A DNA stretch of 50,599 nt from a virus (Duplodnaviria > Heunggongvirae > Uroviricota > Caudoviricetes): positions 206,551-257,149 of the IMG/VR virus record IMGVR_UViG_3300022562_001204. The stretch is one strand, 5' to 3'. The notes beneath the pieces were generated by a model. The model did no database searches and was not told where the DNA came from. It saw only the letters and a list, made by a program, of their open reading frames with translations. Below are positions 87 through 3,372 of the stretch, one piece after another. Position 1 is the stretch's first letter; every line of letters begins with the position of its first letter. Both the position numbers and the translations under genes were made by a program.

Positions 87-1067
87 TTAAGCAGATTGTC
101 TTGAAACCAAAACCATACCACGGAACCGCAGGTCCATACGGACCACATAACCATTCGCTGGGCACCATTCGTTAACGAAGGCGTCCAGAACTGGGCGGAG
201 ATGTGTCCGACAGGCCAACAGGTTGGACGTCTTTAACGTCCCGCCGTCCAGCGTGATCAGACACGGGAACCCCAGGTAAGCGGCAGCCTCCGACAGCAAC
301 TTGGAGTCTGCTCCCGACAGCACCAGGGCACTCTTCCCGAGTCCTTTGAGAGACGAGACATCTAGCCTCTCCCAGTACTCAGGACCCAGGTCCCTCATAT
401 AGAGAGTCTTCTTGAGGAGGTTCTCCTCCATCTCCTCGGCTGTCACCGAGTTGATGTTCCCCAACACCCTACACCGGTGTTTGAAGAGCTCCTCCGGGTC
501 CACCCCGGGTACCCGACCCCGGTACGCCGCGCAGAGACAGTGATCAGCTGCTGCGACATTGACGAACGCCTGGGGGATCTTAACCCAGACTACCTCCTTA
601 CCACGCTGGGTGGAGACCACCCAGCCATCCAGGGGATGGTGTTTCATAGTCCCTGTAGGCGCTACGGTTGACTCCGCAAACACCTGTTTCCATGGCAGCT
701 CCACGCCCAGTTTCGCCATGACGGCGATCAGCTGACCGATCGAGCTACCGTGGAGCGCCTGGGATGGAGGTACCTCCCATCCTCCATCCCCAAGGTAATG
801 GTGATCTACCTTGACGACGACCCCCTCCCACAGGAGGTTTTCTGGTGGGTTGCATTCCACCAGTACGACAACCTCTGTCCCAGACGGGACAGAGGTACGC
901 GTCCCCTCATCAGTGATCAACTCACAAGACCCGTAGGCCTGGTGAGCCTTTACCCTCTTCCCTTCGACGCCCGCATAGCCGAAGGGAATATTGAACCGAG
1001 CCAGGATGGCCCGGATGGATGACATCTCGACGTCAGAAGCGCCGAGCACCACATACAGCTGTTTCAT
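87..1067 (-). CDS. DHH-motif phosphoesterase-like protein (NrN-like), ~326 aa
   Basis: Start moved to ATG 1067 (MKQLYVVLG), which has a GGGAG RBS and lies downstream of the promoter motif. Motifs: LGASDVEM, VEC, VDHH, SSIGQ, AAADH. Confidence 0.6.
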   Translation of the reverse strand: MKQLYVVLGASDVEMSSIRAILARFNIPFGYAGVEGKRVKAHQAYGSCELITDEGTRTSVPSGTEVVVLVECNPPENLLWEGVVVKVDHHYLGDGGWEVPPSQALHGSSIGQLIAVMAKLGVELPWKQVFAESTVAPTGTMKHHPLDGWVVSTQRGKEVVWVKIPQAFVNVAAADHCLCAAYRGRVPGVDPEELFKHRCRVLGNINSVTAEEMEENLLKKTLYMRDLGPEYWERLDVSSLKGLGKSALVLSGADSKLLSEAAAYLGFPCLITLDGGTLKTSNLLACRTHLRPVLDAFVNEWCPANGYVVRMDLRFRGMVLVSRQSA

Positions 1068-1117: not shown

Positions 1118-1133
1118 TCAAGTGAAGTATATC
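1118..1133 (-). promoter_or_regulatory. Putative early promoter GATATACT-tcact-TGA
   Basis: Repeated intergenic motif ~50 nt upstream of ATG 1067. Confidence 0.65.
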
Positions 1134-1149
1134 TAACTGAAAAAAATTA

Positions 1150-1697
1150 AGAAGCAAAATGCCTGGTGGGCGAAGCCGAAGCCTCGCCCACCGTGCACGG
1201 TGCTGATGAACTTCAAGATAAACTATCCGACACGAACTGCTAAACGCAGAAACCAAGACGTATCCCCCGTCTGGCTGTCCATCCATCAGCAACCTAGCGG
1301 TCCACAGTGTCCGTCATCCGAAGTGGTAAAAGGAGTAAAACCCATTCGGACGACTAGGCATGTGAACACACGTATGGCGGGTTCCTTGGCGAGAGAGGCG
1401 CACCTTTTAGGCGAGAGACGTCTCTGAGAGCGGAAAGGGTCGACCACTGTGTCGACAAGGAACCCATGAAAAGGCGGAGCTACTGGCGTACTCCAATGTT
1501 TAACACCGATCTCGACGAGCGTCTGGGGCGGGATGCTCGGAAACCATGACACGTCACAGGCCAAGGGAGAGAAGCCTGTATTGACGTGAAGCCCGAGGGG
1601 GATGGGGGAGCCCGGGCAATGGTAGATGATCGGTGGTGCCAGCGTCTAATCCCTTCGGAGTAGACCAAACCATTCGGAGAATCCAGAGACTCTCCTT
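1150..1697 (-). ncRNA. Candidate large structured non-coding RNA (~540 nt)
   Basis: No credible ORF. Flanked by a promoter motif (1697-1712) and a c(UUCG)g hairpin plus U-rich tract. Nested helices include 1201-1208/1284-1291, 1379-1388/1456-1465, 1504-1511/1628-1635 and 1550-1556/1582-1588. A-C mismatches on + read as G-U pairs on -. Confidence 0.65.
1165..1192 (-). terminator. 3' hairpin/terminator of the candidate ncRNA
   Basis: Minus strand reads GGUGGGCGAGGC-UUCG-GCUUCGCCCACC, followed by AGGCAUUUUGCUUCUUAAUUUUUUU. Confidence 0.65.
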
Positions 1698-1712
1698 CAT
1701 ACTAAGTATATT
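1697..1712 (-). promoter_or_regulatory. Putative early promoter AATATACT-tagta-TGA, driving the ncRNA region
   Basis: Repeated motif with no RBS/ORF combination downstream. Confidence 0.65.
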
Positions 1713-1725
1713 CTGCTGTACTTTT

Positions 1726-3372
1726 TTACGAAGGGGATGCGAGTGCTTCTCGACGCATGGCCAGGATAGCTGTTGTCTGCACCAGGGCAGGACGACGATA
1801 CTCGATCCGAATCTTGTTCAGCAGCGCCTGGGAGATGCAATCGTAGTTGGTCAGGAAGCTGTCCTGGGAAACCGAGCTGCCAGAACCATAGTTCTGGTAC
1901 GCCTCCCTCCCCGTGAGGACACGGTAGATATAGGAGAAGTCGCACTTGGTTACGTAGGGCAGGTCTCCGATTCCGTTCAGCTCCGGTATCCCCATGATGC
2001 CCTGGTTGATGGCACAGACCACTTTATACAGAACCTTGGGATACTGACGGAGTCGCTCGATGGCGGCTGGCGCCACCATGTCCAGGTCGCAGAGTACTGA
2101 GAACCGTACCCGATACTGGTACCGGATGTTCAGGTCCTGAGTCGATGAAAGCATCAATCCTGAGTTGACCGTGAAGCGGTTGTGGCTTTGGAGCTGTCGG
2201 TTCTGGTAAACACTCAGGTTGAAGATCGATAGGTAGGGGGAGGTCAGGTAGGGATACTCGACTTCCTCCAGGAACTGCATGACGTCTGGGTCGATCATGG
2301 CATCGCCCAGCTCGTGGAGATCGACCAGATCCTTAAGGTTATCTGTGGAGATCGTGCAGAGCGCCTGGAGAATCCCTGAGGATTTACCGGTGAAGCCCTC
2401 TGGCCAGAAGTCATCGAACTGAGGGATACGGATGGGTCCGTTGTTCGGTTTAGCCGCGCAACCCTCGTAATCCTGACGGAAGTGCATCATGGCAATCTGT
2501 GACATACTGCCGCTCAAAGCGGTTGTCAGGAAAGCAGGGGGTTCTGCGGCGTAGTCCAGCCACTCGACCGGCATCGGCAGGTTGTGGACCACGATGGGGT
2601 ACTTCAGGGTCGTACCGATCGGCTTGTCGTAGTCGAAGGTGTAGTCGAACCCAATCTCCCACATACCCGTATCGGCATCTCGGGTGGGTTCCTCGGGGAC
2701 AGCCTCAAAGCTGTATTTCCCGTAGATCTCACCTTGCTTCTCAGCGACGGCGTAGATAGATGTCCCGCCAGTGACCACACCGACCTTGGTCAGGCGTGGG
2801 GTAGCATTGGCTTCGAAGTACGTCTCAAAGTCAGTCCCATACCCACCCTGGGTCTCTCGAAGCTCCCAGGCCTTGTAGATAATCCCGAAGAGACGGCTAT
2901 CCACATTAAACTGGTAGTGGATGACGTGAGCATTCAGTCCTCTTAGGCGGGATACCGCCATTCGCATCTCCTGGTACCAGCGCTGGGCCTCAGTTTTACT
3001 GGGGCACCGGTAGGAGAACGTGATCGTGACGTTATGCTTGGCGTAGATCGGTGTCAATCGTAGGCCGATGTAGATGTCCTCGAAGACAGCCGGGTACTCC
3101 TTACCATCAAAGAAGGTCGGGCTGAGGGTATCCTCATCCACCTCCTCCTTGACCACCACGAAGTTGTTTCGGGAAGACTCCATCTTGATATAGCGGTCTT
3201 CCATCTTGTCGATCGTACCCCCGACCGAACTCATCTTCTCCCCGTCACCCGGGAAGTAGACGGGACAGTCCTTCATCTGGGTGATCTTTTGCACCTGCTT
3301 GATGACCTCAATGGCCGCAGGTCGGGAGATGTTCTGAGTGCTCTCAGGGAGCGGGACATGGACGTTCGGCAT
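1726..3372 (-). CDS. Conserved phiKZ-like virion structural protein, 548 aa
   Basis: Long ORF with phage codon bias. The N-terminus (PLPESTQNISRP..IEVIKQ) resembles conserved jumbo-phage virion proteins as recalled. Confidence 0.55.
   Translation of the reverse strand: MPNVHVPLPESTQNISRPAAIEVIKQVQKITQMKDCPVYFPGDGEKMSSVGGTIDKMEDRYIKMESSRNNFVVVKEEVDEDTLSPTFFDGKEYPAVFEDIYIGLRLTPIYAKHNVTITFSYRCPSKTEAQRWYQEMRMAVSRLRGLNAHVIHYQFNVDSRLFGIIYKAWELRETQGGYGTDFETYFEANATPRLTKVGVVTGGTSIYAVAEKQGEIYGKYSFEAVPEEPTRDADTGMWEIGFDYTFDYDKPIGTTLKYPIVVHNLPMPVEWLDYAAEPPAFLTTALSGSMSQIAMMHFRQDYEGCAAKPNNGPIRIPQFDDFWPEGFTGKSSGILQALCTISTDNLKDLVDLHELGDAMIDPDVMQFLEEVEYPYLTSPYLSIFNLSVYQNRQLQSHNRFTVNSGLMLSSTQDLNIRYQYRVRFSVLCDLDMVAPAAIERLRQYPKVLYKVVCAINQGIMGIPELNGIGDLPYVTKCDFSYIYRVLTGREAYQNYGSGSSVSQDSFLTNYDCISQALLNKIRIEYRRPALVQTTAILAMRREALASPS

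Follow-up and report, generated by a model that had tools for sequence, protein, structure and literature searches.

The available part of PMC2790875 describes Shine-Dalgarno binding by unpaired UCCC motifs, which are present in RsaE and in three loops of RNAIII, both RNAs of S. aureus. Among jumbo phages, phiKZ expresses non-coding RNAs (PMC13282480, in the sections accessible), and the mRNAs of phiKZ-type phages are favoured on host ribosomes according to the excerpted text of PMC8545117. We analysed a window of 50,599 nucleotides (the whole stretch of DNA under study), which takes up the terminal 50.6 kb of a virus record that is complete at 257,149 bp. Near its beginning lies an ORF-free stretch that is a credible candidate for an orphan non-coding RNA gene; its start is sharply predicted and its loop signature is unusual. 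This stretch probably yields a real, discrete non-coding RNA. The reading of its function that we prefer is tentative, and we put it at somewhat under an even chance: the product would be an early RNA of about 550 nt whose C/U-rich loops pair with ribosome-binding sites in trans.

Locus and coding potential

From its sequence, the genome (G000) is assigned to an uncultured phiKZ-like jumbo phage, since neighbouring genes match the internal head protein and head protease families of phiKZ and a gp98 homolog is present (Table 1). The Moabite homolog of this last gene is itself annotated as a phiKZ098 match, and 13 non-self gp98 relatives, with identities of 31-48%, were found among 5.8 billion proteins. 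The gp98 homolog is full length and uninterrupted by the RNA stretch. One public run, labelled marine sediment metagenome, carries the ORF-free stretch whole in a single identical contig; this contig may be where the analysed DNA comes from and does not count as an independent copy.

Coding potential was scored with a codon model trained on this genome, for which real genes reach 0.33 +/- 0.15 and wrong frames -0.24 +/- 0.23 bits per codon. All six frames of positions 1140-1712 score like wrong frames (-0.07 to -0.31 bits per codon, with 4-10 stops per frame), and the short ORFs and an apparent 5' extension of the downstream gene give -0.17 to -0.42 bits per codon. The first-pass annotation had stated that the stretch contains no credible ORF, and these scores bear it out. 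Readthrough of TAG opens no frame in 1140-1712 because TAA or TGA stops remain in every frame. As regards this codon, TAG is the stop in only six of the 132 long ORFs of the genome, and the sole tRNA call (C1:91728-91802, minus strand) has a CUA, amber-reading, anticodon. The RNA stretch is the fifth longest of the 15 stretches of at least 280 nt without a scoring ORF in this genome.

These results bear on the possibility that the stretch is a neutral or near-neutral spacer, either what is left of a decayed gene that had inserted downstream of an early promoter, or an extended, structured 3' UTR belonging to the gp98 homolog, transcribed but with no function of its own. We regard this reading as somewhat unlikely. 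No coding signal is left in any frame, 550 nt are enclosed by an intact promoter and terminator in DNA of which about 92-95% is coding (intergenic share about 10%), and ATG ORFs of 124-206 aa were found in six of seven further large gaps that we examined, all of which argues against a spacer. In its favour, the site behind gp98 is variable and holds different cargo in this genome and in its relatives G001 (about 240 nt and another gene) and G003 (a small ORF together with the same promoter). The G001 site contains a different structured stretch of 236 nt (L008:8015-8250, plus strand; z -6.16), made up of an irregular stem-loop of 90 nt and a perfect 16-bp hairpin. The gp98 homolog lies about 170 kb away from the homologs (G000:C1:34042-37506) of genes that follow gp98 in several relatives.

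The downstream DHH-like gene is apparently independent of the RNA, and its product has no match in Pfam or PDB. Ribozymes (hammerhead type II, twister-P5) were found near homologs of this gene in three of the 20 viral loci scanned (L150:1982-2197, L149:3596-3682 and L144:698-1641), and in L149 the twister directly follows the stop codon of the homolog. It is no more than a guess that the gene helps to process the ends of cleaved RNA.

Table 1. Predicted and observed features of the locus, in window coordinates (all on the minus strand; ranges within features run 5' to 3')
Position	Strand	Feature	Basis or remark
1726..3372	-	Homolog of phiKZ gp98, a virion-associated protein	phrog_3289, E 2e-90; upstream flank of the RNA
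1718..1727	-	A-tract and TAC, some 21 nt upstream of the predicted start	sequence; only 4 such sites genome-wide, weak
1698..1711	-	ATATACT (1711-1705) as promoter-like motif, then a six-base spacer and the predicted start G1698	motif statistics; PMC5312081 (available part)
1145..1698	-	Predicted non-coding RNA, about 550 nt, ending somewhere from about 1158 to 1140	fold, codon scores
1644..1695	-	Two 5' hairpins, 1695-1676 and 1665-1644	predicted pairing 0.95-0.98
1504..1635	-	Predicted multibranch domain A with three C-rich loops, L1-L3	closing helix 0.96-1.0
1610-1598	-	Loop L1	CUCCCCCAUCCCC
1572-1563	-	Loop L2	UCUCUCCCUU
1531-1524	-	Loop L3	CCGCCCCA
1379..1465	-	Predicted domain B, 10-bp closing helix, interior poorly determined	fold prediction
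1297..1371	-	Predicted domain C, long hairpin, stem 1354-1345/1322-1313, loop L4	fold prediction
1339-1328	-	Loop L4	UUUACUCCUUUU; complements the Shine-Dalgarno consensus of the genome
1201..1291	-	Predicted multibranch domain D; GGGGGAU (1268-1262) may pair with L1, 7 bp	duplex -12.9 kcal/mol, opening 4.6
1140..1198	-	Terminator-like hairpin 1192-1165, c(UUCG)g loop, extendable to 1198-1159, then U-rich tail	predicted pairing 1.0
1119..1146	-	Early-type promoter, complete, serving the next gene: T-tract, ATATACT 1132-1126, G at 1119	outside the RNA
87..1067	-	Downstream gene, 326 aa, DHH and ADHC motifs, DHH-phosphoesterase-like	motifs; own promoter

Promoter motif and transcript ends

In the early promoter of AR9, as set out in the available part of PMC5312081, an AT-rich element is followed by 6 nt and a start G; phiKZ and phiR1-37 have the same spacing, and the phiKZ late element is given as TATG, its G being the start. 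All elements of the early design are present at 1711-1698, but the T-tract found upstream of the fullest motif copies is absent from this site. Since the whole early-promoter design is present, the start is predicted at G1698; being predicted to the base, it allows the RNA to be made and probed in vitro directly. G1698 doubles as the G of a TATG, and because the start G is shared with the phiKZ late element it is uncertain that expression would be early only. The A-tract that precedes the motif resembles the phiKZ middle element as given in the accessible text of PMC8244752, but reads TACA rather than TACT.

The distribution of the motif supports this prediction. The minus strand of the genome has 23 copies of ATATACT, of which 17 are intergenic (p 4e-13 relative to a genome that is ~10% intergenic), compared to one of nine on the plus strand. 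A G is found seven bases past the motif in 14 of the 17 intergenic minus-strand sites, including the site at 1711-1705, which has the greatest distance to the next gene among those ATATACT-N6-G sites (644 nt). In G001, a G occupies that position in 24 of 40 minus-strand sites vs 3 of 17 on the plus strand, and in G003 it is present at all 18 ATATAC[TC] sites of one strand; the pattern is weaker in G004 (16 of 37) and no clear pattern is seen in G002 and G005. No sigma-70 promoter was found for the RNA stretch. The longer word ATATACTT occurs on the minus strand at 1704-1711 and 1125-1132, and the stretch had been described as bounded by the repeated promoter motif. The first copy fits this description, but the second belongs to the next gene, whose promoter resembles the one predicted for N1M2/OBP in the available part of PMC7058600.

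At the opposite end, the c(UUCG)g hairpin comprises 12 bp and resembles other intergenic hairpins of the genome. The earlier description of a hairpin plus U-tract holds for the hairpin, but the U-rich tail is not adjacent: it begins five bases further on, with AGGCA between, and a strict terminator scan did not call the site. The U7 run after the hairpin also serves as the T-tract of the next promoter. One internal terminator-like site (1272-1256) is at chance level. Perfect or near-perfect palindromes are located inside the RNA at 1186-1199, 1414-1423 and 1439-1456, the 14-nt one overlapping the 5' arm of the terminator; it is possible that they constitute dimer contacts.

The evidence supports a discrete, minus-strand, early-type non-coding transcription unit, and does so more through promoter statistics than through folding. 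Of the first-pass proposal of an early-expressed ornate RNA, this part survives, but the ornate likeness to ROOL and GOLLD is not established, given the ordinary folding and U/C-rich unpaired bases described below. Transcription would start at G1698 early in infection through the virion RNA polymerase, possibly with a second round late through TATG, and termination would fall near 1150.

Predicted fold and exposed loops

The stretch folds better than its shuffles on both strands (z -5.67 on the minus and -3.22 on the plus strand, or -3.8 and -2.6 without the terminator), but it is unexceptional when set against tiles of the genome. As many as 12 of 80 random 500-nt minus-strand tiles beat their shuffles as much as the RNA body, although such tiles may include terminators and the body was scored without its own; this favours a neutral spacer. 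The raw folding energy of the RNA ranks 30 of 458 tiles. Folding stability is thus ordinary for this genome. The adjacent coding stretch at 590-1149 folds better than the RNA (z -6.98), the coding sequence of the DHH-like gene being hairpin-rich (751-900, z -8.6). The most stable tile of the genome (77220-78000 in genome coordinates) lies behind a near-identical promoter.

Four closing helices had been named in the first-pass annotation, and the arms of all four are exact reverse complements. Three hold in the fold prediction: 1201-08/1284-91, 1379-88/1456-65 and 1504-11/1628-35 pair at 0.96-1.0 (with one end pair at 0.51). The fourth, 1293-97/1354-58, has a pairing probability of 0.0; forcing it costs 10 kcal/mol and the model favours 1367-61/1306-00 instead. 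Likewise, of the roughly four multibranch domains proposed, those at 1635-1504 and 1291-1201 are clearly predicted as such, but 1465-1379 and 1371-1297 are predicted to form long irregular hairpins. The RNA would begin with GAAGGAG, a Shine-Dalgarno-like word.

The minus strand was chosen on the basis of the promoter and terminator. The G-U asymmetry that had been taken to indicate this strand does point in this direction, but modestly (7 vs 3 helix-internal and 7 vs 4 confident pairs). Natural structured RNAs are usually biased toward A-rich unpaired bases, and this bias is seen on the plus strand (73 A, 44 G, 34 C and 22 U unpaired), whereas the unpaired bases of the minus strand are U/C-rich. 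A functional RNA read from the plus strand, with A-rich junctions and loops carrying GGA words, would also have slightly more pairs exceeding p 0.8 (130 vs 124). We nevertheless find it very improbable: no plus-strand ATATAC[TC] motif is present between genome positions 196860 and 213373, the plus-strand fold is the weaker one, the G-U counts favour the minus strand, and the UUCG loop and U-rich tail are oriented for the minus strand.

All four hairpin loops of at least 7 nt, L1 to L4, are C/U-rich and predicted to be open. In domain A, the predicted probability that loop bases are unpaired is 0.93-1.0, with one edge base at 0.72. Each of the four loops contains CUCC, UCCC, CCCC or UCCU, and a count of four is not reached in any of the 258 shuffles or 125 tiles; these motifs were picked post hoc, after the loops had been seen, and the 0/258 figure is optimistic. 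With the neutral measure of pyrimidine share, the loops score 0.87, which is reached by 12 of 258 shuffles and by no tile among 125. That no tile matches this composition argues against a spacer.

The commonest words before the start codons of the genome are AAAGGA and AAGGAG. When matched to 235 phage start regions, L4 pairs better than with coding controls (18% fall below the 5% line of the controls, p 7e-8) and L2 shows a weak preference (p 0.02); L1 and L3 show no preference for these 235 starts (p 0.93 and 1.0, respectively). The top partner of L4 is a gene at genome positions 203400-203900, whose leader carries AAAGGAGU. No long antisense match was found elsewhere in the genome: besides the promoter copies, matches span at most 25 nt with E 0.46 or worse. 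In the mechanism that we tentatively favour, the four exposed loops would pair with the purine-rich ribosome-binding sites of mRNAs from the host or the phage, and this would damp translation, as RNAIII and RsaE do.

Several considerations weigh against such pairing. The fold and its loops come without any homolog, the loop test is post hoc and folding is ordinary for the genome. L1 has a net favourable partner within the RNA according to the energy model, and an early block of the phage's own strongest ribosome-binding sites would seem costly. The L4 result depends on one word only, CUCCUUU, and this word could in turn be a defunct ribosome-binding site of the plus strand read in reverse.

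The internal partner of L1 leads to a different possibility, an ornate scaffold or cage RNA working like ROOL and GOLLD, whose pyrimidine loops are consumed in intra- or intermolecular kissing contacts. We hold this to be possible, if on the unlikely side. Its size is within the ROOL range (env-120, 659 nt, in the available part of PMC12286853). Two loops have perfect 7-nt complements elsewhere in the RNA, a number equalled by three of 258 shuffles, and the contact between L1 and GGGGGAU is estimated at -12.9 kcal/mol vs an opening cost of 4.6 (loop-closure cost not included). This is the only net favourable contact of the three for which an opening cost was computed, as neither the 5' GAAGGAG with L4 (-8.0 vs 9.9) nor CACAGUG with CACUGUG (-8.7 vs 13.7) pays. 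In addition, 22 of the 258 shuffles and 16 of the 125 tiles have three loops with 6-nt complements, and the location away from tRNAs, absence of a match in Rfam, unexceptional stability and U/C-rich junctions also speak against a scaffold. A reading that uses both properties is an RNAIII-like regulator of 550 nt, made from the first minutes of infection and unrelated to known families, in which four anti-Shine-Dalgarno loops would stop or re-rank the translation of host mRNAs and L1 would be switched by the internal kissing contact; we judge this unlikely.

Rho and ribosomal protein S1 are proteins with a preference for pyrimidine-rich RNA. An early-type promoter and predicted open C/U loops would also suit a decoy RNA that soaks up a host protein binding pyrimidine single strands or an RNA-targeting defence nuclease early in infection. 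This appears quite improbable, as the RNA has no tandem repeats or repeated units of the kind known from RNA mimics and no tRNA-like part.

Relatives and comparison with known RNAs

Searches with blastn returned only four matches of 20-25 nt (E 7) from 50,697 phage records and no match at E 1 from 72,556 plasmids. BLAST and nhmmer did not match the RNA in G001, and the best DNA match in 12 further loci had E 0.035 over at most 23 nt. We also built single-sequence models of 1470-1700 (R1) and 1195-1470 (R2), which are weak and may miss distant homologs. Across 20 genomes or records, each model found its own copy and nothing in the other 19, which favours a spacer. An R1 match of 17.3 bits in FLC9 was rejected, because many of its pairs are broken and it falls within an annotated gene, and Xoo-sp14 gave two weak model matches of 8.2 and 10.5 bits. 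Over stretches of G001-G005, the best R1 or R2 match outside the window had E 0.79. In IMG/VR, an exact 15-mer was present at 106 loci, about as expected by chance, and none extends (80 of the 106 were also checked with R2); the L4 stem-loop pattern occurred at 12 loci, none scoring with R2.

Locus-based scans gave similar results. Scans for related loci found none with gp98 alone, none in two genome scans and, in one metagenome scan, only a contig matching G001. Among 31 viral loci with homologs of the DHH-like gene, nhmmer gave no match better than E 8 and a crude ORF map showed no upstream gap of similar size, and at none of 15 loci that have a homolog of gp98 is this gene followed by a gap longer than 240 nt. 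The search for homologous intergenic regions in related jumbo phages that the first-pass annotation had proposed therefore found no homolog by blastn, nhmmer or single-sequence models. Because no relative was found, the RNA stays a candidate.

Other units were noticed in these genomes. G001 carries a candidate non-coding RNA at L019:18755 to about 18460 (minus strand, near 116268), with the promoter motif, about 290 ORF-free nt and a terminator with a U-tract (z -7.3 over 420 nt, terminator included). It was rejected as a homolog since it does not match the RNA, and it has no Rfam match either. This suggests that promoter-led ORF-free units recur in the phage group. In G004, a hairpin leader of about 70 nt starting at the promoter motif is present in three copies (L229:6474-6405, 10461-10393 and L227:8500-8449). 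In G001, a 90-nt stretch inside a tRNA cluster (L017:16770-16859, minus strand) matches positions 2126-2215 of the bacterial large-subunit rRNA model with 63.6 bits and may be a piece of rRNA, or a mimic of it, carried by this jumbo phage. The same genome has two group I introns and a HEARO RNA (L019:15041-15352, L022:4841-5130 and L024:7735-7937).

Rfam models gave no match at gathering score over the window; the six weak matches (E 2.4-7.6) include none to ROOL, GOLLD, OLE or raiA, in agreement with the earlier statement that the RNA is apparently unrelated in sequence to ROOL and GOLLD. ARAGORN detected no tRNA or tmRNA in the window, and with Rfam negative for RNase P, and also for SRP and 6S RNA, the reported lack of tmRNA, RNase P and tRNA signatures is confirmed. 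Descriptors that we wrote for known motifs detected neither a hammerhead nor an HDV-like fold on the two strands; for twister and pistol they gave loose matches to single motifs only. Rfam was negative for all four. No reverse transcriptase of the kind accompanying retron, DGR or DRT RNAs was found in the complete genome with PF00078. A group I or II intron or HEARO element was rejected, the gp98 homolog being full length and Rfam being negative here yet positive in G001.

If our preferred reading is true, the RNA would give a concrete, testable account of how a lytic jumbo phage could control translation through RNA. Failing this, the locus may represent a new large RNA architecture; anti-Shine-Dalgarno loops in particular would offer an RNA-based route to host takeover. 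What is new over the first reading is the set of four C/U-rich loops, which points to a base-pairing mechanism. The value of the candidate is limited because it is a single orphan copy.

Searches of titles and abstract openings in a partly accessible literature turned up no description of this RNA. Closest in phage group are the non-coding RNA candidates of phiKZ and 201phi2-1, which are likewise promoter-to-terminator units without an ORF; in the available parts of PMC8545117, PMC11512511 and PMC10914365 these are UTR-derived and shorter than 250 nt, whereas the present candidate has about 550 nt and its own promoter motif. The lnc001 and lnc002 RNAs of phage K (Kayvirus) are also long intergenic phage RNAs, one of them from its own early promoter (PMC9241854, available part). 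Unlike our candidate, they are supported by RNA-seq, lie beside tRNA genes and belong to a Staphylococcus phage, and blastn of the candidate against the phage records showed no likeness. With ROOL and GOLLD, large ornate RNAs of phages and prophages as portrayed in the accessible text of PMC12286853, the candidate shares a phage origin, a size in the 0.5-0.8 kb range, multiple domains and candidate kissing loops. It differs from them in its lack of an Rfam match, its single orphan copy and its U/C-rich junctions. ROOL and GOLLD are often found near tRNA islands, whereas the candidate is about 116 kb away from the sole tRNA call (91.7 vs 208 kb).

RNAIII is about 510 nt long, similar to the candidate RNA, and its 5' hairpin and 3' terminator also have predicted counterparts here. 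The candidate differs from RNAIII and RsaE in that it has no sequence or Rfam match to them, is phage-encoded behind a promoter of phage-polymerase type and contains no small ORF with coding signal; moreover, only L4 and, weakly, L2 prefer start regions. It shares with the two RNAs, as described in the available part of PMC2790875, the presence of several C-rich unpaired hairpin loops, predicted in our case, and complementarity to the Shine-Dalgarno sequence.
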